Shown: positions 19,698-53,603, counted from the stretch's first letter. The stretch: 64,000 nucleotides of DNA from Candidatus Saccharimonadia bacterium (GCA_023253175.1 JALRHH010000002.1:199-64198); one strand, 5' to 3'. A program made the numbers and translations. The notes: generated by a model not told the origin, from the letters alone.

Positions 19698-19775
19698 CCC
19701 TCACGGGCAGCACCCTCAGATATTTACCAAAGTAAAAAGCCCATCCTATGATGAGCCTTTTACTTTGGTGGAGCT
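19698..19775. repeat. 78-bp direct repeat, copy B (native tmRNA 3' tip plus terminator)
   Basis: Overlaps the last 10 nt of ssrA (AGCTCCACCA on the minus strand) and the terminator hairpin. Confidence 0.9.
19727..19765 (-). terminator. intrinsic terminator of ssrA
   Basis: Minus strand AAAAGGCTCATC-ATAG-GATGGGCTTTTT followed by ACTTTGG, directly after the encoded CCA. Confidence 0.7.
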
Positions 19776-20148
19776 GGTGGGTACTGCCCCCACGTCCGCT
19801 AGTTCAACTGATTAGTCTGTCCTACAGGTTTAGGCTATTTAATCACTTCTACAGCTGATAATAGCCAAAACGCAGTAGAAGTTTGATTCTTGTCTTAAGC
19901 CAACTTCGAATCAAGAGTTAGCAGCGTCCAGAAAAATATAAAACGCTATTGTACTATCTGGCATCGAACAAAAGCATTGCTGTTAATTAAATTAAGCAGC
20001 TAGCGCAAAGGCTGCGCGACGTCCGAGAACGTTGTCAACCATTGCTGTAAGTGAATCTTTTGCATCTATTCAGATGTATCTATGACGCTGATAAGCGACC
20101 TGCTGATCTAACCGTTAAAGTCCAACGTCGAGCTTAAAATTCAGCCCC
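19766..20148 (-). ncRNA. ssrA: tmRNA (SsrA)
   Basis: Minus strand begins GGGGCTGAATTTTAAGCTCGACG and ends GGACGTGGGGGCAGTACCCACCAGCTCCACCA. The acceptor stem GGGGCTG/CAGCTCC includes the G3:U wobble used by AlaRS. An internal reading frame ...GTT CTC GGA CGT CGC GCA GCC TTT GCG CTA GCT GCT TAA gives a tag ending ...LGRRAAFALAA-stop. Confidence 0.9.
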
Positions 20149-45415: not shown

Positions 45416-46052
45416 CCAGTACGCGGTTAAGCTGCCTAATAATTGCAGGCTCAGGCTGCAGAACGATTGCTCTTCCCTTTGCGAGCTTTTGAATATCTTG
45501 TTCAATCCAGTGATAATGCGTGCATCCAAGCACGATCACATCAGCACCAGCATCAAGCACTTCGATAATTCGGCCGTCGACTTTTTTCCTATCCACGTTA
45601 TTTGCCTGGATCATTGCCGCCCAGTCACTGCAGTCAGGCTCTAATACCGTGGTATCTTTTGCATAAGTATCCTTGAGCCAGCCATACCGCTTGCTCTTAA
45701 GCGTGGCAGGCGTTGCACAGACAGCAACTATACCAGTTTTAGTTTGCTGTGCCGCTGGCTTAACCATTGGTTCGATACCTACCAATGGCACACTTATCTG
45801 CTCCCTAAGCTGCCTGATGATTGTAGTCGTCACGGTATTGCATGCGATCACGATAACCTCACACCCCTGCTCTATCATTTCCTGTAAGATTGGAGTAACG
45901 AGGTCTAGTAGCTGCTCAGGCGTCTTATTGCCATAGGGTAGATGAGCGCTATCATCTCTAAAGATAACTTCACTATCTGGGAAAGTCTCTCTTATCGCCC
46001 GCGCAACAGACTCACCACCCCTGCCAGAATCAAACACACCAATAGTATGCAT
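45399..46052 (-). CDS. murI: glutamate racemase (short form, 217 aa)
   Basis: FDSGRGG, IACNT and LGCTHY catalytic-Cys blocks. Convergent 17-nt overlap with murD. Confidence 0.8.
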   Translation of the reverse strand: MHTIGVFDSGRGGESVARAIRETFPDSEVIFRDDSAHLPYGNKTPEQLLDLVTPILQEMIEQGCEVIVIACNTVTTTIIRQLREQISVPLVGIEPMVKPAAQQTKTGIVAVCATPATLKSKRYGWLKDTYAKDTTVLEPDCSDWAAMIQANNVDRKKVDGRIIEVLDAGADVIVLGCTHYHWIEQDIQKLAKGRAIVLQPEPAIIRQLNRVLASLAV

Positions 46053-46864
46053 TATGAATCCTGGATAGTATTACGAGCGGCGCGGAGTACGTTATCGAAT
46101 AAAGCACAGACGGTTAGTGGACCAACGCCGCCTTTTGCTGGGGTGATCGTAAGGTCATCTCTGTCATAAAGCTCCGGTGCAACATCGCCGACAGTCTTGC
46201 CGTCTTCACTGGCCACACCCGCATCAACCACGACGGCACCTTCCTTGATCATATCCGGATACAGGATTGCAGGGCTGCCAGTTGCAGTCACAATTACGTC
46301 AGCATCCTGAGTTTTTTCACCAAGATTTTCGGTATTTCTATCGGCAACCGTTACGTCAACTTCTGAACTTTTCAATATTTTTTCAAGCGGTGCGCCGACA
46401 AGCTTACCACGCCCAATAAGGAGTACTTTTTTGCCGCGAAGATCTACATTATACCCAGCCAGCAGCCACATGATTGCCATCGGTGTTGCGGGTTCAAACA
46501 CTGCATCCTTACCAAGCGCATCAACATCTTTTTCCGGAGCAACCAGATTAACAATAGCGTCTGTTTCTGATGGATCAGCTAAAGGAAGCTGTACGATAAT
46601 GCCATGCACGGAGTCATCCTCGTTAAGCCGCTGGATCACTTGTGGTGCCTCTTCTTGCTTTGGGTGATGGGACTCAACCTCTATATCAATATCTGCGCCG
46701 TATCGCTTTTTAAGACGTACATAGGTATCAATTACGGGGTCTTGCTTGACTTGTACTATTGCGAGCTTTGGCGTAATGTCATGAGCCTGAATGAGAGCAC
46801 GAGCCTGCTGCGCCTGACGAAGCTTAATAAAGTCAGCTAATTCTTTGCCATTGAGTAGTTTCAT
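46052..46864 (-). CDS. folD: bifunctional methylenetetrahydrofolate dehydrogenase/cyclohydrolase
   Basis: MKLLNGKELA start at 46864, GRGKLVGAPL and PAKGGVGPLTV. Confidence 0.88.
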   Translation of the reverse strand: MKLLNGKELADFIKLRQAQQARALIQAHDITPKLAIVQVKQDPVIDTYVRLKKRYGADIDIEVESHHPKQEEAPQVIQRLNEDDSVHGIIVQLPLADPSETDAIVNLVAPEKDVDALGKDAVFEPATPMAIMWLLAGYNVDLRGKKVLLIGRGKLVGAPLEKILKSSEVDVTVADRNTENLGEKTQDADVIVTATGSPAILYPDMIKEGAVVVDAGVASEDGKTVGDVAPELYDRDDLTITPAKGGVGPLTVCALFDNVLRAARNTIQDS

Positions 46865-46944
46865 ATCTGGGATATTATACGTCAAAGGGGCTTGCAAAAA
46901 CAGAGGTAATTTGTTACAATCGTCTGGTCCTAACATAAAAGTTT

Positions 46945-47021
46945 GGGCCTGTAGCTCAGTTGGTTAGAGCAGCGGACTCTTAATCCGCGTGTCGTGGGTT
47001 CGAATCCCACCAGGCCCTCCA
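46945..47021 (+). tRNA. tRNA-Lys (anticodon CUU), CCA encoded; integration target of the island
   Basis: GGGCCTGTAGCTCAGTTGGTTAGAGCAGCGGACTCTTAATCCGCGTGTCGTGGGTTCGAATCCCACCAGGCCCTCCA. Anticodon loop is CTCTTAA. Confidence 0.9.
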
Positions 47022-48602
47022 AATATCCAGTTTTGAATCTGAATACCAATCTATATCTGTAGATTGGTATTTTTGTTTAGTTCGTCCCTTTACAGCCAAG
47101 GGCTTAAGCCATTCATTAGGTTCGATAGTTAATTTGCCATTCATTAGGGTTATAGATTTGCTGAATGATGTAATAATTTTTCTCTTATCTAGGATCGTCC
47201 CACTACTGAATTTTGAAGCCGCAGTAAAGGCTAATTCTATGGTGTCTTCCGCAATTTTAAGCCAATCAGTTGTCCGCTTATTGCAATCAATCAACTCTTC
47301 GTCTAATTTACGAAGGTTTTGCTTAAAAATGCCGGACCTTGTGGTATATTCAGAGTCGTTTATAAGCTTTAATGCGCGCATTTCGATAAGGCCATTCAAC
47401 TTATCCATCTCGACCTCTTTCCTGTCCATCACATTCTGCCTAAATGCCTTATTAAATTTACTCTCAGCAGCATGCTTACTGCGCAAAATAGAAAGTGCGA
47501 TGTCTTTAAACTCAGGTACAATTTGATATTGCGATATTATCTCCCTGATCTGATTTTCGATTGACTCGAGACGTGTATATTTCTTTTGGGTACAAACTTT
47601 CGACTGGCTCTTCCTGGTACAGTGATAATGCACATAAGTTTTATACTCATTCAACGACTTAATATATTTAGTATTAGACTTTCCCACTACGCTACAGCCA
47701 CACTCCCCACATCTAATCAAACCCGTAAAAGAGTAGGCGTGGGTATTTGATCTAGGCTTTCCTCTATCTTTAAGAATACGTTGAGCAAGATCAAACTGCT
47801 CTAGCGATATCATAGCCTTGTGATTTCCTTTGTAGAGTTCACCATTGTGCGATATATAACCTGCGTAGAACGGATTAGTAAATATGTTATAGATCATGCT
47901 CGTGGGCATTTTCTTGCCACCAGCACGCTTTGTTCTTCGTGTTCTAAAACCCCATTCTTCATTCGCAATACGACATATTTGGCCAGGAGTATAAATTCCA
48001 CTAAACAACATATCCCACATTTTTAAGATTAAGTCGTAAGGCTTTTGGTCAATCTCAGTAGACGTAATAATTTTGTCTTTATTGGTCTGCAGCCTACCGA
48101 ATTGATCAAGTAAGGGAACTTTCATATATCCCTGCGGAACCTGACCGGGACGCTCACCGTTTGACGCTTTCTGTTCCATACCCCGCTTAACATCGCGGCC
48201 TTGTTTTGCGGACTCGTACTGTGATTGGTTCATCGTCATTTGAAGCATCATTATGCCCTCGGCACTATTGTCAAAACCGAATGTACAGAATTTTAAATCT
48301 TTTAACGTTGATCTGAGCCTGTATGTTATGGCAGCTGAATCTATTTCATTACGAGATAGTCTATTTGGATGCCAACATACTATTCCATCTGCAAATCCTT
48401 CATCTATTAGATCGAGCATTTCATTAAAAATGCTCCGACCAGGCTTAAAAGCAGTTTTACTTTCAGGTTCCATCCACTTCACTATCTCAATATTCGGATA
48501 GTATTCCTTGATTTTACTTATCTGTGACTGAAGTGAAAGCTCCTGCCGCTCTGCCCGCTCTTCAGACTTTCTAACATATGCGATGTATCTTAGGTTTGTC
48601 AT
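46980..48602 (-). CDS. large serine recombinase (integrase)
   Basis: N-terminal resolvase-type catalytic region IAYVRKSEERAERQELSLQSQ, a recombinase domain, a zinc ribbon CGECG...HYHC and a long coiled-coil C-terminus. The last ~13 codons are encoded by the reverse complement of the tRNA-Lys T-arm (…WRAWWDSNPRHAD). Confidence 0.85.
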   Translation of the reverse strand: MTNLRYIAYVRKSEERAERQELSLQSQISKIKEYYPNIEIVKWMEPESKTAFKPGRSIFNEMLDLIDEGFADGIVCWHPNRLSRNEIDSAAITYRLRSTLKDLKFCTFGFDNSAEGIMMLQMTMNQSQYESAKQGRDVKRGMEQKASNGERPGQVPQGYMKVPLLDQFGRLQTNKDKIITSTEIDQKPYDLILKMWDMLFSGIYTPGQICRIANEEWGFRTRRTKRAGGKKMPTSMIYNIFTNPFYAGYISHNGELYKGNHKAMISLEQFDLAQRILKDRGKPRSNTHAYSFTGLIRCGECGCSVVGKSNTKYIKSLNEYKTYVHYHCTRKSQSKVCTQKKYTRLESIENQIREIISQYQIVPEFKDIALSILRSKHAAESKFNKAFRQNVMDRKEVEMDKLNGLIEMRALKLINDSEYTTRSGIFKQNLRKLDEELIDCNKRTTDWLKIAEDTIELAFTAASKFSSGTILDKRKIITSFSKSITLMNGKLTIEPNEWLKPLAVKGRTKQKYQSTDIDWYSDSKLDIWRAWWDSNPRHAD

Positions 48603-48745
48603 TTAAACTCCACTTAAAAGGACGGCCCTGGTTCACCCAATAAGATAGAAATCTACTGGCAAGGCCGCCCTTAAAAGGCAGTATGTATGATTCTCTATCT
48701 ATATGGGTGAACTCGTTAATTATACGCTATTTATATATTCTTAAG

Positions 48746-49261
48746 TTAGTTCTGAACGTCATTGCCGAACAGTAACTCTGCTTCGGATACTTGCCTCTTC
48801 TGATGTCGTTGTATTAAACCTAATTTAGATTGGTAAGGTTTCTTGGTATTCTTTGTAATAGATTTCCTATGCTCCTCAATCTTTATATCTACCTCCCTTA
48901 GAGCAAGATGGTTGCTTTTCATTAAACTGGTTATGATTAATGTAAGCTTACTGATTTCCACCCTATAATGGTGTTTTGCTGGAATTGAAGCCAGTTTATG
49001 GCTAACAACCCCATAGTTAATCAATATATTTAAGGCAGTCCTCTGATTATTTCTGGAAAGCCCCGTCTCTATAAACATTTCATCTGCAGTCTTATAGAAA
49101 TATCCATCTTTTCTACTGGTTTTATCTTGCCAGTAGAGCAGCTGGTTGAACATAATCGCAGCATCTCGAGATTTAAAACATATTGCAAGCGCGCCTGAGT
49201 ATGCTATTGGCCTTTGCTTAATTAAGCTATATACAACTTGCTGATGTTTGCTCAGACTCAC
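48746..49261 (-). CDS. island-encoded putative winged-helix DNA-binding/replication-organiser-like protein
   Basis: The block YFYKTADEMFIETGLSRNNQRTALNILINYGVV resembles DnaD/phage replication-organiser N-terminal wHTH proteins. Start taken at the GTG at 49261, preceded by AAGGAG; the track ORF starts at 49303. Confidence 0.45.
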   Translation of the reverse strand: MSLSKHQQVVYSLIKQRPIAYSGALAICFKSRDAAIMFNQLLYWQDKTSRKDGYFYKTADEMFIETGLSRNNQRTALNILINYGVVSHKLASIPAKHHYRVEISKLTLIITSLMKSNHLALREVDIKIEEHRKSITKNTKKPYQSKLGLIQRHQKRQVSEAELLFGNDVQN

Positions 49262-49266
49262 TCCAG

Positions 49267-49413
49267 TCACTCCTTTGGTGTTATTGATTCTATAAACATA
49301 CAAAGCTCTGCTATCTTCATTCGCGCCTCCTCATTACTAATATCCATAGAGTAGAGGTCTTTAAAAGTCCTTCTAAATATCTTTATATGTTCAGTAGTAA
49401 TGTCTGCGTTCAT
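49267..49413 (-). CDS. small island ORF (48 aa), possible excisionase/regulator
   Basis: Below the track cutoff. Reads MNADITTEHIKIFRRTFKDLYSMDISNEEARMKIAELCMFIESITPKE. Its stop sits 3 nt before the proposed GTG start of the downstream gene. Confidence 0.3.
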   Translation of the reverse strand: MNADITTEHIKIFRRTFKDLYSMDISNEEARMKIAELCMFIESITPKE

Positions 49414-49427
49414 ATCTTAAGTAATCT

Positions 49428-49471
49428 AAAAGCCCTCATTCTTATGACTGGTATAGAACGAGGGCTTTTTT
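49428..49471. terminator. hairpin flanked by A/T runs separating island cargo genes from the recombination module
   Basis: aaaagccctc-(22 nt)-gagggctttttt. Could act as a terminator in either direction. Confidence 0.4.
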
Positions 49472-49700
49472 CTTCCAGTCATATTTTCAGTATATGCATC
49501 CATTCCCAAAAAGCGTGTTGTGAAAGTGCGCAGCAGCATATTAGCCTCGGCCCAGACTGTATTGTTGTATAATCCTGGTAAGTGGATTTCCACTGAGACC
49601 TAAAGCCACTCCTAAAAAAGAAGGTATGGTCACCAAATCTATAGCGAAAAAAATCCCGTCGTTTGGGTACTTTTCGCTATAGTCATAGTCCGAAAGGAAT

Positions 49701-49964
49701 ATGGGCGGCCGAAAGGTCGTCGCCCAGCGGCGGGTTTTTTGTATGCCGAAAATCCAGGAGAGCAAAATTAATATGCCCAACTTAGTTAAAGATAAATCTA
49801 GTTACCTACCCGTACTGCTTGTAGCCACTATAGTCATACTAGTAGGTATTGTGCTGTACGCTTTATACGGACCATCAGAGGCTGACAAACTGCCTAATAC
49901 ACCAGATATTCACCAGCAGATGCTAGACGAAACTGTTCGCCAAAACGAATTAAACTCTAACTGA
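49701..49964 (+). CDS. possible small membrane protein
   Basis: Contains TM helix YLPVLLVATIVILVGIVLYALY. The likely start is an internal Met at 49743 or 49773. It is the only plus-strand ORF in the island. ORF-only evidence. Confidence 0.3.
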   Translation: MGGRKVVAQRRVFCMPKIQESKINMPNLVKDKSSYLPVLLVATIVILVGIVLYALYGPSEADKLPNTPDIHQQMLDETVRQNELNSN

Positions 49965-49989
49965 AGCTTACGTAGGCAGACGGTACGAA

Positions 49990-50559
49990 CTATGAGCTAC
50001 TCTGATCGGGTAGCCCAATACGAGATAGGAAGTTTGCAAAGCGTTGTGATAAAGCTTCACGATAAATCTCATTAATAGATGTAACGTAGCTCCTCTTGCG
50101 AGCATCGTACAAAACCTCTCTCGGTGCTGTTATGAAGTGTTTAAAATCAAGCACCAATTCAGGGACCCCATTATCAAGGTCCTCTTGTAAATAATGGTAT
50201 CTCTTGTAAGTATCATTAGCTCTAATTTTAGCCATCAACTTTTCGCCGAATACTTCCATTTGACGCGTTGCGATATGTTCCCCCCTTGAGAAATCATCAA
50301 GCTGGTACGCTGGACAAACAAGTATAGTATCAATATTTTTGTCTGTTTTAACTGGTTTAGGCTTCTTGTTTCTTTCTTCATAATCTTGCTGCAAGTCACA
50401 ATCTTGAGTCAGTACAACCGCGTATTTTAAATTAGCCTCTATATGTAATGTATTACTCCCACTTCCAATAGAGATTAAAAGATCCTCAAAGATGTCCCCT
50501 TGGCATATTCGGGCCTTTCTGTAGTATCTATACGGACTTTTTATTAGACTTGTGTACAT
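49990..50559 (-). CDS. island cargo protein D (189 aa, unknown function)
   Basis: No recognised family. The N-terminal pattern QGDIFEDL...(~20 aa)...YAVVLTQDCDL is loosely reminiscent of the GD(I/L)(W/F)...RPxVV(L/I)S pattern of MazF/PemK-fold proteins; this similarity is weak. Confidence 0.5.
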   Translation of the reverse strand: MYTSLIKSPYRYYRKARICQGDIFEDLLISIGSGSNTLHIEANLKYAVVLTQDCDLQQDYEERNKKPKPVKTDKNIDTILVCPAYQLDDFSRGEHIATRQMEVFGEKLMAKIRANDTYKRYHYLQEDLDNGVPELVLDFKHFITAPREVLYDARKRSYVTSINEIYREALSQRFANFLSRIGLPDQSSS

Positions 50560-50737
50560 ACCTGGTGTGGTTATAAGAAGTATTGGTTCTAGAATAAACT
50601 ACAGCTTTGTCACTGGGTTGTGTCGAAGAGGTCCTAGCAGAAACAGACTGTTTTGCTGGCTTTTTTCGGGTATCCTCCGATGGCTTAGTATATCTGCCTG
50701 ATTCAGCCATCCTGTAATGAATATAGTCTTCGCTCAT
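50528..50737 (-). CDS. island cargo protein E (69 aa, basic, Ser/Thr-rich)
   Basis: Starts 2 nt after the stop of the upstream gene and overlaps the downstream gene by 32 nt, suggesting translational coupling. Confidence 0.4.
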   Translation of the reverse strand: MSEDYIHYRMAESGRYTKPSEDTRKKPAKQSVSARTSSTQPSDKAVVYSRTNTSYNHTRYVHKSNKKSV

Positions 50738-50739
50738 TT

Positions 50740-51489
50740 TTATTTTTCCATTTCTTTTCTAACTTTATCGGTAATTGATAATTCGAATATACTTTCTGCC
50801 TCATCCTTTAAATCAGTAAATGACTTTAAGATTGCATCTAAATCTGTGTCTACTGGCCGAGGGGTATAACAGTCAATGTCTAAAATATAAGATGATCTCA
50901 AGATAGGACTAGGGTACTTATCATTCCAAATACCGTATTTAAATATCGCGCTACAGCTATCTGTCTTATATTCGAACTGATTTAATATCCTGAGCGGAAC
51001 CCTATCTTTTGAACCAATAAATTCATGAACGACAAGTAAGTCGCTAGATATGTAGGCCTTCCAGTCCTGCAACTTTCGGACAGAATCAAATTCAAGATTA
51101 TTTATATACCTTAGGCCCATACGAATTAGTTGCTTTACACTGTGATCGTTCAAAAATTTTATACACATTTTAGATATGTAATCTTTAATGGCACTTGAAT
51201 CTTTATATGAAAAATATTCTAGAACAAGATAAGATGGTCCTATTTCTAATCTGTTTCCATTTGTAGTATTAAGGAAGTGCCAAACATCAATTTCTTCTAC
51301 GGAATTAATAACCTCTCCTGAATCAACCTGAAACTCAAAATTCCCAACTTTGCCTTTTTTCTTAGAGATATCATCAAATAAGTCGCCAGCTAGTTGTCTG
51401 TACTCTTCAAAATTAGTAAGCTCCGTAGATTCAAAATCTAGTCGAAAAATCACTTGCTTCAGATAATTTTTCTTATATGTATGGCTCAT
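50740..51489 (-). CDS. island cargo protein F (249 aa), possibly TIGR04255-like
   Basis: The N-terminus MSHTYKKNYLKQVIFRLDFES resembles, from memory, the conserved N-terminal strand of the sporadically distributed TIGR04255 family. No catalytic motif recognised. Confidence 0.5.
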   Translation of the reverse strand: MSHTYKKNYLKQVIFRLDFESTELTNFEEYRQLAGDLFDDISKKKGKVGNFEFQVDSGEVINSVEEIDVWHFLNTTNGNRLEIGPSYLVLEYFSYKDSSAIKDYISKMCIKFLNDHSVKQLIRMGLRYINNLEFDSVRKLQDWKAYISSDLLVVHEFIGSKDRVPLRILNQFEYKTDSCSAIFKYGIWNDKYPSPILRSSYILDIDCYTPRPVDTDLDAILKSFTDLKDEAESIFELSITDKVRKEMEK

Positions 51490-51542
51490 ATCGTCTAAGA
51501 TTAATATAACACGATTGCTAGTCGCCGTCTTAATTAAGGTCC

Positions 51543-52304
51543 CTATTCCTTAATTTGAACTCTTTTCTTAAGCTCCAAAGTATCATTCATTTCCATAATA
51601 TAAAAGCCATCTTCAAACTGCCTACTTACTGTGTTGAAATCTTTTAGTATATATCTTTCACCGTAATTTTTGATTAATAAACGAGATGAATCATTTTGGG
51701 CTGAAATCACATATAGACCGTTCTGAGAGCTGGCAAAATACTTTCCAGTACCTAATGCAATAGCAAATACTAGAGTTAGTAAATAAATATAGTAAGCATT
51801 TCGTTCAGCCAACGTTTTATATGGTTTATTGAGATCTTCTTCCCTGCTTTTCTGGGCTTTTTCTAGTGCCTTATCCAAGTTACGGTAACGTATAAGATTA
51901 AAAATAAAATCTATTTCAAAGGTAAGCAGAAGTAGACAAATGATACCCGCCATTGTCAGCCAGTTATGTCCGCCCATACCATAGTAAACGAGTGCAGAAA
52001 TTACGGAAGCTATGGCCATACCTACCACTCTTCTCATCTCACGCTTAATTGATTCCCGTTTTATACCATCCGTCATTTCAATCATCGCTACTTTAATATG
52101 ATCAATCATAAAAAATCCATAGCTTAATAATGCGATGCTGACTATGAGAGTGATTACGTTTACCTCTATAAATTTGTAACTTACATTGAAATGATTTAAA
52201 TAAGCATATTCAAAAATGTAAGCAACCGCATAACTGGTTGCCGTAATCAACAGGACTTGTATACCACTATTTTCTAAAAATCCTTCTTTATTATTTTTTG
52301 GCAT
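51543..52304 (-). CDS. island cargo protein G (253 aa, polytopic membrane protein with a small C-terminal soluble domain)
   Basis: About 5 hydrophobic helices (e.g. VLLITATSYAVAYIF, VITLIVSIALLSYGFFMI, GMAIASVISALVYYG, MAGIICLLLLTFEIDFIF, YYIYLLTLVFAIALG), then ~70 soluble residues. Confidence 0.55.
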   Translation of the reverse strand: MPKNNKEGFLENSGIQVLLITATSYAVAYIFEYAYLNHFNVSYKFIEVNVITLIVSIALLSYGFFMIDHIKVAMIEMTDGIKRESIKREMRRVVGMAIASVISALVYYGMGGHNWLTMAGIICLLLLTFEIDFIFNLIRYRNLDKALEKAQKSREEDLNKPYKTLAERNAYYIYLLTLVFAIALGTGKYFASSQNGLYVISAQNDSSRLLIKNYGERYILKDFNTVSRQFEDGFYIMEMNDTLELKKRVQIKE

Positions 52305-52594
52305 TCCTACTCCTACGCTTCATATTGTGTGATTATCCGGCATCGAATAATAAGCAGCAAGCATAACAAGAATCATCTATTCTGATATTAATAATTGACG
52401 CATCTAATCTAGATAATGTGCATATTATAAAAGTTGTTGCAATTACTACAAATATAATTACTACGTTAAGAAGTAAGGAACGTGTTTATGTTGCATTCTG
52501 TTGAATAAAGAGAATGCTCCGGTAGCTATACTTCCACCTAAATGCCCCGCATCGCTTAGCTGATTCTAGTTGCTGTAAGCTCCACTATGGCCCT

Positions 52595-52632
52595 CCAAAA
52601 TAAAAACTCCCTTCTCGGGAGTTTTTATTTTG
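52595..52632 (+). terminator. strong intrinsic terminator, probably the original tRNA-Lys terminator displaced by the island
   Basis: ccaaaataaaaactccc-ttct-cgggagtttttattttgg, starting inside the second copy of the 11-nt core. Confidence 0.75.
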
Positions 52633-52769
52633 GAAAGTTTACGTGAATTCGAAACCAGTACCACGAAGTGGTGGGTTCGATAGCTAGGAGCTCACGCAGG
52701 AGCTTGCTCCGAGTAAGCAACGTAGATATATGCAATAATCCCACCAAAGTAATTTGCTATCATAGCTAC

Positions 52770-53346: not shown

Positions 53347-53603
53347 TATATGTAACTGTGGCGCCTATGCAACCATGAGCAATACAATCTGAAAAATATT
53401 TTTGTTTTAGCCATAAGTACGATACTATACAGATATCTGCTAACAGCAGCATCAAGAGTACGGTTAGAGATCTAGCTCGATGATCCGTCGGCAACCTGCG
53501 AAATGTAAGGTGCTCCACCTAGACCAATTACTAACAATAATTGGAAGGATGTGGTTACAACATACTTGAAGCCCATCCTTTCTAGAGATAGAAGGGATTT
53601 TTA

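Follow-up and report, generated by a model that had tools for sequence, protein, structure and literature searches.

A small integrative element at a tRNA-Lys gene whose serine integrase is predicted to exchange its C-terminus upon integration

Serine integrases act on short att sites (~40-50 bp) of imperfect dyad symmetry, exchange strands at a 2-bp crossover and depend on a separate directionality factor for excision. In the mycobacteriophages BPs and Brujita, the integrases of which are tyrosine recombinases, attP is located within a coding sequence, that of the repressor, and integration changes both the C-terminus and the behaviour of this regulatory protein. In the Myxococcus phage Mx8, attP resides within the integrase's own coding sequence, and integration converts IntP into IntX, a protein with a new 3′-encoded end and altered properties (PMC6070905). 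Genomic islands of the Islander type abut an intact tRNA gene, which is regenerated on integration, have their far end marked by a short, displaced duplicate of the tRNA 3′ end and encode the integrase on the tRNA-proximal side (PMC7192596). According to a survey of 2,168 genomes, serine integrases had not been reported to use t(m)RNA genes; the survey found 14 such cases among 297 candidates (PMC7192596).

All four features of the Islander-type islands are found at a locus in the window, that is, the whole 64,000-nt stretch of DNA analysed here (Table 1): an intact tRNA-Lys(CTT) gene with the CCA encoded at its end, a displaced tRNA 3′ fragment forming a direct repeat, a tRNA-proximal integrase gene and a tRNA gene that would be regenerated on integration. 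However, Islander-type islands employ tyrosine integrases, whereas this locus has a serine integrase, the duplication covers only 9 nt of the tRNA, and the crossover would fall in the acceptor/CCA end instead of the anticodon or T loops. The 540-aa large serine recombinase (LSR) gene abuts the tRNA, reads through the core and ends in WWDSNPRHAD, as stated in the preliminary description of this DNA, and the 11-nt core GGCCCTCCAAA indeed has only two copies in the window, one at each end of the island. That description equated the core with the end of the tRNA, which holds for nine of its nucleotides (acceptor 3′ strand, discriminator and CCA), but not for the remaining two, which lie beyond the gene. 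We consider it very probable that the interval 47024-52588, between both cores, is a small integrative element inserted into the 3′ end of tRNA-Lys(CTT) by the mechanism proposed below. Judged from named relatives alone, the host is probably a member of Saccharibacteria.

Table 1. Features of the tRNA-Lys island and its boundaries (positions in the window)
Feature	Coordinates	Strand	Basis
tRNA-Lys(CTT), target gene, B arm of attL	46945..47021	+	ARAGORN and Rfam tRNA (75.2 bits), in agreement
LSR, integrated form, 540 aa	46980..48602	-	Pfam PF00239, PF07508, PF13408; PHROG integrase, 3.5e-67
attL copy of 11-nt core	47013..47023	+	exact repeat
Predicted intrinsic terminator for tRNA, element-supplied	47041..47078	+	terminator scan; fold
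19-nt inverted repeat, 84% complementary	48631..48712		between Rep-like gene and LSR start
Rep-like winged-helix protein, 185-aa ORF (~171 aa as called elsewhere)	48746..49303	-	PHROG matches
LOOT RNA motif (Rfam RF03000), opposite to integrase	49597..49721	+	67.8 bits
Cargo ORF, 189 aa	49990..50559	-	weak match to PHROG 4575 (unknown-function family)
Cargo ORF, 249 aa, TIGR04255 family (unknown function)	50740..51489	-	NCBIfam TIGR04255, 1.1e-23
Cargo ORF, 253 aa	51543..52304	-	hydrophobic sequence
Predicted P′ arm of attP, ten codons and stop (IVELTATRIS)	52556..52588	-	ORF joining; DNA common to free forms
attR copy of 11-nt core	52589..52599	+	exact repeat
Displaced native tRNA-Lys terminator (B′ arm), predicted	52598..52633	+	fold; layout at unoccupied L109/L110 sites

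When one mismatch is tolerated, the repeat by itself is weak evidence, with two or more matches arising in 15/100 shuffled sequences, which is not significant alone. The repeat could, accordingly, be coincidental, the element having other boundaries or having been inserted by another recombinase, such as a since-lost tRNA-targeting tyrosine integrase; tRNA-Lys T-arm-like fragments just beyond attR (52668-52681 and 52737-52746) could mark an older event of such a different type. This explanation is, nevertheless, highly improbable, given that exact matches to the 11-mer average 0.04 in shuffles (two or more in 0/100), that the G+C content drops over the same interval (0.33-0.42 between 47000 and 52500 vs ~0.45-0.50 in the flanks), and that the only recombinase the island encodes is a serine recombinase, with no tyrosine recombinase present. 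Furthermore, the repeat sits where the rule derived from the family predicts, the adjoining sequence continues the integrase frame with the family tail motif and DNA common to free forms, and the flank past the repeat resembles the terminator at unoccupied sites.

The latter resemblance bears out the proposal that the strong hairpin directly after the far core represents the displaced tRNA terminator. AAATAAAAACTCCCTTCTCGGGAGTTTTTATTTT, immediately 3′ of this core, folds at -16.4 kcal/mol (z = -4.2) and matches in layout the tRNA-Lys genes of L109 and L110, in which an A-rich leader, a hairpin and a T-run directly follow the CCA; the absence of an integrase next to tRNA-Lys genes with such a similar 3′ arrangement indicates that these sites are unoccupied. 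At these orthologous sites, in related species (FolD 79-83% identical), tRNA-Lys ends with GGCCCTCCA and is devoid of an adjacent integrase. A second hairpin, inside the island, lies antisense to integrase codons ~509-521 and consists of a 14-bp stem followed by TTTTTGTTT (-18.6 kcal/mol, z = -5.3). In a strict scan, an equivalent hairpin with a T-run was present at 29/52 family loci compared with 47/860 control segments, which suggests that the element provides a terminator that is used in place of the displaced one.

The LSR contains the catalytic (PF00239, E = 2.6e-19, residues 7-150), Recombinase (PF07508, 1.6e-9) and zinc-ribbon (PF13408, Zn_ribbon_recom, 1.9e-8) domains, and Y9, R11 and S13 as well as Cys298, 301, 303, 328 and 337 are invariant in alignments of 24 and 10 sequences. 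AlphaFold2 predicts a coiled-coil pair (helices 363-410 and 416-467, pLDDT 80-95), paralleled in the model of P0012 by paired long helices at 368-415 and 421-472 (pLDDT 80-95), and these models place a long coiled-coil insert in the zinc-ribbon domain. The order of catalytic-serine, recombinase and zinc-ribbon domains, the last with a coiled coil, is that of the phage LSRs (A118/LI, phiC31, Bxb1, TP901-1 and SPbeta), in which attP and attB are likewise identical over a very short stretch only (here 9-11 nt) and the integrase gene is also located beside attP. Comparison with characterised enzymes recovered the A118/LI integrase (4KIS), but similarity to solved LSRs is low, the match being distant and restricted to residues 218-376, which cover the recombinase and zinc-ribbon domains (E = 1.8e-9). 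Unlike in these phages, the target is a tRNA 3′ end, attP is predicted to lie inside the integrase ORF, so that integration alters the protein, an antisense terminator is contained within the coding region, and no directionality factor was recognised among the island ORFs by domain, family and PHROG searches. We are not aware of any sequence signature shared by recombination directionality factors.

The integrated LSR ends with WRAWWDSNPRHAD (DIWRAWWDSNPRHAD) and is encoded there by the antisense strand of the tRNA, to which the last 42 nt of the ORF belong. The ORF terminates at a TAA that is antisense to bases 2-3 of the anticodon and A37 (46980-46982), and the attL core, TT-TGG-AGG-GCC on the integrase strand, specifies the residues (I)WRA. 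The final ten residues (531-540) had been assigned to the antisense of the T-arm; they are antisense to the tRNA, but extend over the acceptor strand, variable loop and anticodon stem as well. If the cores are joined in silico, with 52588 connected via the core to 47024, the ORF is again 540 aa long and ends with WRAIVELTATRIS (DIWRAIVELTATRIS). The circular form was thus correctly foreseen to close after the ten residues IVELTATRIS, and, as detailed below, these fit the tails of free forms.

This layout is not a peculiarity of a single locus. More than 100 homologues with 45-55% identity end, nearly without exception, in WRA[RQIST][WRG][DG][SL]NP[RG]H[PSA]A, an ending that corresponds to a tRNA 3′ half read in antisense. 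Among 71 loci of related LSRs whose 3′ end is complete (36-63% identity), 56 enter a tRNA gene in antisense orientation (47 according to ARAGORN, 8 according to Rfam and one tRNA with a group I intron), the targets being tRNAs for Lys, Asn, Asp, Arg, Ser, Trp, Gly, Tyr, Gln and His. The integrated tails vary with the tRNA, from 3 to ~30 residues after the Trp. In some subfamilies, the integrated LSR is cut short after WCG, WQG or WLGW. Hence, Saccharibacteria-like bacteria harbour a large and apparently undescribed family of LSRs with the same layout, evident both at this locus and as a family-wide pattern, and the sequence comparison supports applying our interpretation to the whole family. 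The proposal of a mobile island, a weak argument when drawn from one locus, becomes a strong one in the light of this comparison.

Eleven loci are in a free form. One of these, L024, is a circular contig of 8,030 bp with a 30-nt terminal overlap, in which a 529-aa LSR ORF is closed over the junction. The free L056 and the integrated L055 are 96% identical at the DNA level over 3,539 nt, the alignment ending exactly where the tRNA 3′ end lies, and near-identical genes accordingly exist in both states. The free-form tails share the motif W-x-x-[IV][VL][DE]-x-[VI][RA]T with the circle tails of integrated relatives rebuilt by joining through the 9-11-nt repeats at their far ends (L029, L041, L048, L049, L050, L080, L018 and L033). 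IVELTATRIS, the predicted excised tail of the present island, conforms to both sets, and TGGAGGGCCATMGTRGA and CAGCARCTAGAAT of the P′ arm are also present in L024 and L027, both free forms. The broader motif W..[ILVKT][VL][DENM].[VIL][RAG]T, drawn up from the very data in which its matches were counted, occurs 21 times in 1.83 million six-frame residues; every match is on the integrase strand and lies at the 3′ end of an integrase or else 6-10 kb upstream of an integrated copy.

Based on these comparisons, we propose that, in the free circle, attP would be embedded in the integrase gene at its 3′ end, with the codons preceding Trp528 as the P arm, a core, TGG-AGG-GCC (WRA), that would copy the tRNA acceptor end with the CCA, and the last ten codons and the stop as the P′ arm. 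The LSR would exchange strands inside CCTCCA (47016-47021), the hexamer to which the family comparison appears to confine the crossover: the identity blocks between att sites span 9-11 nt, and their overlap across relatives is the 6-nt TGGNNN. The best dyad centre, CC at 47016-47017, has a modest symmetry peak (0.353 vs a background of ~0.25) and may weakly point to this dinucleotide. The predicted attP and attB are 50 bp each, and their junctions would read CACTATGGCCCTCCAAATATCCAG and CCAGGCCCTCCAAAATAAAAACTCCC, respectively. Integration would regenerate the tRNA exactly while shifting its own terminator 5.6 kb to the attR flank, whereupon the replacement terminator, antisense to the C-terminal codons of the integrase, would lie 20 nt past the CCA. 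The integrated ORF would then enter the antisense tRNA and stop at the TAA provided by the anticodon loop, exchanging a conserved, probably helical tail for a peptide dictated by the tRNA.

Whether the exchanged residues matter is a separate question. The overlap with attP might simply result from compactness, with ten dispensable residues and two functionally alike isoforms, and we regard such an inert swap as only slightly less than an even prospect. In the AlphaFold2 models, the last helix continues through WRA into the tail in the free form and breaks at SNP in the integrated form, but the C-terminal 40 residues are modelled at low confidence in both (~40-55 in the tail), as would suit a dispensable end; the wide variation in integrated tail length suggests that no particular integrated tail is selected, and the P′ arm, a putative binding site in which GTTAGAAC and the AGA codon recur, would be conserved as DNA in any event. 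By contrast, entropy in the tail (1.34, 0.96 and 1.60 at codon positions 1, 2 and 3, respectively) is lowest at position 2 and highest at position 3, a protein-coding substitution pattern. Moreover, the conserved Arg, encoded by AGA/AGG in most members, is retained as CGC or CGA in L062 and L047, the hydrophobic positions are kept through differing codons (TTG, GTC and CTG), and the motif persists in subfamilies that target different tRNAs and whose integrases are only 37-55% identical. It is lost in every integrated form.

A further question is whether this particular copy still moves. The island is present at the same place in all same-strain contigs, from many samples and at 99.96-100% identity, and neither the attP junction nor an empty attB, both anticipated for a mobile element, was found among the retrieved contigs of this strain. 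The LSR is, in addition, ~15 residues shorter than its relatives immediately before WRA and could, judging from this gap, have decayed in part; in L018 and L033, tandem attR-like remnants indicate that elements of this kind decay in place. The copy might therefore be a fixed remnant that integrated once and can no longer excise, its ORF being open by chance, which we deem rather unlikely. The 540-aa ORF is intact and preserves all invariant residues, including the zinc-ribbon cysteines and the catalytic Ser13, the two att cores match perfectly, and the excised ORF closes after exactly ten codons with the family motif; the same-strain contigs, for their part, effectively represent one clone, so the missing empty site says little.

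Beyond the integrase, the cargo is variable, and the only cargo gene common to relatives encodes the Rep-like protein, which matches the PHROGs 'replication initiation O-like' (1e-28) and 'DnaD-like helicase loader' (2e-11). Its homologues, found in 17 loci, always lie immediately upstream of the LSR, and the one in L024 matches DnaD_N (4e-7). The inverted repeat between the two genes might serve as an operator or as an origin. The LOOT RNA occupies an equivalent relative position in L096, L087, L089, L050 and L067. The 189-aa ORF has no homologue among the other family loci, and the 253-aa product, whose hydrophobic sequence resembles that of a membrane protein, matched no family above threshold in Pfam, PADLOC, NCBIfam and PHROG searches. 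None of six island proteins matched a PADLOC defence-system model, and no relative was found in IMG/VR. An inovirus, suggested by the small size and the tRNA site, was rejected, as Pfam and PHROG searches of the ORFs of the island and of the circular L024 yielded no pI/Zot ATPase or small coat protein.

With respect to the described systems, the arrangement is shared with Mx8, in which a crossover in the integrase ORF likewise results in different free and integrated C-termini; this is analogy rather than homology, Mx8 Int being a tyrosine recombinase, whereas the enzyme studied here is a serine recombinase that would swap some ten residues, in a family-wide manner and at tRNAs of at least ten identities. 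Unlike in BPs and Brujita, the affected gene is that of the integrase and not of a repressor. With Mx8 as the precedent, what appears to be novel is a serine integrase that swaps its own C-terminus upon integration, with tRNA genes as targets and across an entire family.

Thus, the last ten residues of the integrase are predicted to change when the element integrates, and the same layout extends across the LSR family. It is conceivable, though in our estimate doubtful, that this swap constitutes a built-in state sensor by which the element reprograms its own enzyme throughout the family in Patescibacteria. If so, the integrase of the free circle, equipped with the terminal helix, would support integration, and the integrated isoform, devoid of this helix, would differ in activity, stability or directionality, being either locked off or capable of excision without a separate directionality factor.

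The island at tRNA-Lys(CTT) bears out its preliminary description, and its layout generalizes to a large family of integrases. The 64-kb window holds exactly two copies of the 11-nt core GGCCCTCCAAA, one of them at the tRNA end, against a mean of 0.04 exact matches in shuffled sequences, with 0 of 100 shuffles reaching two; with one mismatch permitted, the count alone is unremarkable. The interval between the copies has a G+C content of 0.33-0.42, compared with about 0.45-0.50 outside, and the second copy is followed directly, as had been described, by AAATAAAAACTCCCTTCTCGGGAGTTTTTATTTT, which comprises a hairpin and its T-run (fold -16.4 kcal/mol, z = -4.2). The integrase ORF reads through the core into the antisense strand of the tRNA and ends in DIWRAWWDSNPRHAD and a stop: GGC-CCT-CCA read antisense gives WRA, the next ten residues correspond to the antisense of the acceptor strand, T-arm, variable loop and anticodon stem, and anticodon bases 2-3 with A37, read antisense, supply the TAA stop. 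These ten residues had been recognized correctly as tRNA antisense, but their assignment to the T-arm alone was too narrow. When the island is circularized at the core, the frame is preserved and the ORF closes with DIWRAIVELTATRIS, also at 540 aa, as had been predicted; the two isoforms end in WRAIVELTATRIS and WRAWWDSNPRHAD, and the predicted junctions are CTCCACTATGGCCCTCCAAATATCCAGTTTTG for attP and CCCACCAGGCCCTCCAAAATAAAAACTCCCTTC for attB. The protein shows the hallmarks of large serine recombinases, as far as these were open to testing.

All contigs with an identical FolD, integrase or DUF2277 neighbour are occupied by an island 99.96-100% identical to this one, and no empty site or circle of the same strain was present among them. 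As these contigs represent one clone, they are uninformative on mobility; breaks in Logan contigs are likewise no evidence for alternative junctions, since they lie inside the tRNA body, away from the att core. Neither an attP junction nor the family attP pattern was found in IMG/VR. Two related species (FolD 83% and 79% identical) retain the FolD, racemase and Mur-ligase order and carry no integrase near tRNA-Lys(CTT), which ends in the same GGCCCTCCA; directly after it come AATTAAAA or AAGTATAA and then a hairpin with its T-run. The attR flank of the window (AAATAAAA, hairpin and T-run) matches the flank at these unoccupied sites, which supports the proposal that it is the displaced native terminator of tRNA-Lys.

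A protein search with the integrase returned 1,812 matches at E <= 0.001, the best 120 of which share 45-55% identity and are about 555 aa long. Nearly all of these 120 end in SWRA[RQIST][WRG][DG][SL]NP[RG]H[PSA]A, the antisense of a tRNA 3' half, whereas a few homologues diverge after WRA (P0012 with WRAIVDAVAARINS, P0078 with WRAIVHAISTAISS) into tails similar to that predicted for the excised window island. The C-terminal WRARRDSNPRHPA of hundreds of predicted recombinases (P0002-P0120 type) is antisense tRNA translation, and the scan pattern WRAx[WR]D[SL]NP[RG] matches antisense tRNA genes genome-wide; such C-termini in protein databases should be read as tRNA read-through, not as a conserved protein motif. 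A scan of genome contigs with full-length alignment gave at least six loci, with three true relatives among the matches listed, all in Saccharibacteria MAGs.

We compared 80 metagenome loci (36-63% identity), plus a few from genomes; 71 of them, duplicates retained, include a complete integrase 3' end. The ORF enters an opposite-strand tRNA gene at 47 of the 71 loci according to ARAGORN and at a further eight according to Rfam; one enters a tRNA split by a group I intron, 11 are free forms and four were assigned to neither class. The targets comprise tRNA-Lys (CTT, TTT), Asn, Asp, Arg, Ser (four anticodons), Trp, Gly, Tyr, Gln and His. Wherever CCA is encoded, it is read as Trp, so that the integrase frame is constant relative to the tRNA, and the two residues that follow vary with the target's acceptor stem (WRA for Lys/Asp, WL. 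for Asn, WQG for Trp, WCG for Gly). One integrase type, at 92-96% DNA identity to the free form L056, resides in tRNA-Ser(GCT) (L055), tRNA-Ser(GGA) (L058) and tRNA-Ser(TGA) (L069), whose 3' ends share CGGAGAG, indicating that one enzyme uses several attB sites. At L091, a group I intron lies beside the integrase ORF end, and this element seems to have entered an intron-containing tRNA, of a kind described for Patescibacteria (PMC13011429).

Free forms also occur among the relatives. The L024 contig, whose integrase is 55% identical to that of the window, is an 8,030-bp circle, judging from a 30-nt terminal overlap (k-1 for its assembler); its 529-aa integrase ORF closes over the circle junction and reads TGGAGGGCC then ATCGTAGATGCT, with no tRNA. 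Circularity is demonstrable only for L024, the terminal overlap being absent in the free-form contigs L047, L056, L057, L059, L060, L062 and L095; L056 is 96% identical in DNA to the integrated L055 across 3,539 nt, and the two part exactly at the tRNA 3' end. For integrated relatives, we rebuilt the circle from the longest stretch, upstream of the integrase, that matched the end of the tRNA. Matches of 9-11 nt restored in-frame tails of a single type, namely WRAIVESIGTKV (L029), WRAIVELIRT (L041), WLSVVNDVRTMIMA with a stop (L048), WLPVVMEVRT (L049), WRAIVDDVRTEIMNY (L050) and WQGVLEQVRT (L080), the same type that ends the free-form ORFs of L057 (WLQKLDDVRT), L059 (WRSIVEDVRT), L095 (WCTVLDEVRT) and L106 (WYAILDQVRT). 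Among 1.83 million six-frame residues from all loci, the tail written as a regular expression had 21 matches, each on the integrase strand, with a W-x-x agreeing with the integrase of the same locus; they lay at the 3' end of the integrase or, for integrated copies, 6-10 kb upstream. The motif was derived partly from the data searched, but the restriction in strand and position and the additional matches, which played no part in its definition, are not circular. The short 9-11-nt repeats are real att cores.

The identity blocks share only TGGNNN (CCA and three more bases, read antisense), and a dyad-symmetry scan of 24 attP sequences, some duplicates retained, reached its maximum, 0.353 over a background near 0.25, at the GG of TGGAGGGCC. 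Together, these two sequence signals tentatively place the crossover at the CC within the core. GTTC/GAAC symmetry noted by eye would put the centre at core index 8, but the systematic scan and the identity-block overlap favour index 4/5. In a Saccharibacteria MAG, one integrated element has tandem attR-like copies upstream of it (TGGAGGGCCATCGTGGA, encoding WRAIVELIAT), three to five per array and 0.45-1.2 kb apart, which look like distal stubs of earlier elements at the same tRNA-Lys.

Across codons 3-12 of the tail in 19 attP sequences, mean entropy is 1.34, 0.96 and 1.60 at codon positions 1, 2 and 3, a coding-type pattern indicating that the free-form tail is conserved as protein. Hydrophobic positions are retained via differing codons, and the tail Arg is AGA/AGG in most members, CGC or CGA in two. 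In AlphaFold2 models, of low confidence in this region, the last helix of the free form P0012 (530-557) spans WRA and eleven residues more, and that of the integrated window protein ends at WRAWWD, ahead of SNPRHAD. The integrated ORFs of the Gly, Tyr, Gln and some Trp subfamilies stop one to two residues past the core triplet (WCG, WQG, WCRV, WLGW), so that loss of the conserved tail is the change common to all integrated forms. A real regulatory switch at the C-terminus is possible, though less likely than not; that the swap is a neutral by-product of compaction we rate at slightly under an even chance.

A terminator scan detected a hairpin on the tRNA strand within integrase codons of about 509-521 (fold -18.6 kcal/mol, z = -5.3). 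The corresponding stretch in relatives encodes the conserved NKKAxxKxxEEAL, and its other strand reads as a G+C-rich hairpin with a T-run behind it. Under a strict scan, this arrangement was found in 29 of 52 distinct loci; among control segments drawn from the antisense strand of these ORFs, 47 of 860 had it, and most of the family loci that were missed showed a bulged hairpin on inspection. From the embedded hairpin and T-run, the element appears to bring its own predicted terminator for the target tRNA, whose native one is displaced.

Only the integrase and the gene directly upstream, which matches the phage 'replication initiation O-like' and 'DnaD-like helicase loader' families, are common to relatives; the window island adds copy-specific ORFs for a 189-aa, a 69-aa, a TIGR04255-family and a hydrophobic 253-aa protein. 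Defence cargo was considered, and the island gave no PADLOC match. No capsid or terminase was found in it or in the circular L024, and an inovirus identity was rejected for both in the lack of pI/Zot, coat proteins and any inovirus marker; no relative was found by protein in IMG/VR. The island is best described as a small integrative element of plasmid-like character. Its host is probably one of the Saccharibacteria: close relatives of the integrase were found in three named genomes, each a MAG of that group, an identical protein is encoded on a 950-kb contig, and one relative uses an intron-bearing tRNA of the Patescibacteria kind. An inverted repeat that could be an operator or origin lies within the 143 nt that separate the Rep-like gene from the start of the integrase. 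The LOOT RNA (RF03000), an orphan Rfam motif known, to our knowledge, only from metagenomes, was detected in 6 of about 85 loci at the sensitivity used; in five relatives with differing tRNA targets it consistently lies 1-3 kb upstream of the integrase on the opposite strand, and it could serve these elements in replication control or as a regulatory RNA.

Just outside attR, upstream of the DUF2277 gene, two tRNA-Lys T-arm pieces about 55 nt apart could be a relic of an older insertion or chance matches. On the other flank, most FolD homologues are about 269 aa, and the true folD start is probably ~25 codons further in than that of the longest ORF, leaving about 80 nt to the divergent tRNA-Lys.

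Features of the window and of related loci (window coordinates unless a locus is named)
Feature	Position	Strand	Details
tmRNA gene	19766-20148	-	ordinary chromosomal feature
folD, longest ORF	46052-46936	-	294 aa
tRNA-Lys(CTT)	46945-47021	+	ARAGORN, Rfam
Integrase ORF	46980-48602	-	540 aa; Resolvase, Recombinase, Zn_ribbon_recom domains
Core at tRNA end	47013-47023
Crossover CC (tentative)	47016-47017
Embedded terminator	47041-47078	+	14-bp hairpin then TTTTTGTTT; 20 nt past CCA
Inverted repeat	48631-48649 / 48694-48712		19 nt, 84% complementary, 44 nt between arms
Rep-like gene	48746-49303
LOOT RNA	49597-49721	+	inside island
Distal core	52589-52599
T-arm piece GTGGTGGGTTCGAT	52668-52681		13/14 match to tRNA-Lys
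T-arm piece AATCCCACCA	52737-52746		10/10 match to tRNA-Lys
SAM (S-box) riboswitch	53446-53555	+	about 850 nt past attR; ordinary chromosomal feature
LOOT RNA, L096	3250-3386	-
LOOT RNA, L087	2457-2586	-
LOOT RNA, L089	7568-7700	-
LOOT RNA, L050	7971-8107	-
LOOT RNA, L067	7312-7446	-
attR-like copies, L018	113, 936, 1387, 1927, 3148
attR-like copies, L033	61, 601, 1822
Group I intron, L091	11660-11850	-

tRNA genes are not usually counted among the targets of serine integrases. A survey stated that t(m)RNA use by serine integrases 'has not been reported previously' and found 14 of 297 candidates, for which proof was needed (Mageeney et al., 2020; PMC7192596). Unlike textbook serine integrases, the family described here targets tRNA genes, has attP inside the integrase ORF and contains an embedded antisense terminator. 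The known precedent for attP inside an integrase ORF is phage Mx8, the enzyme of which is, however, a tyrosine integrase (PMC6070905). In the literature covered, which was incomplete and does not prove novelty, we found neither this integrase family nor any serine integrase ORF that spans attP described. The family, with at least many dozens of members, systematically targets the tRNA acceptor/CCA end of at least 10 tRNA identities, and its use of short sites in universally conserved tRNA ends suggests possible tools for Patescibacteria that are hard to work with, Saccharibacteria among them. With the integrase end rewritten on integration, the hypothesis of Mx8-like self-regulation becomes testable for serine integrases. 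The overlap of C-terminus, attP and putative antisense tRNA terminator, three functions in about 100 bp, shows a route by which a compact element may insert harmlessly beside an essential gene.
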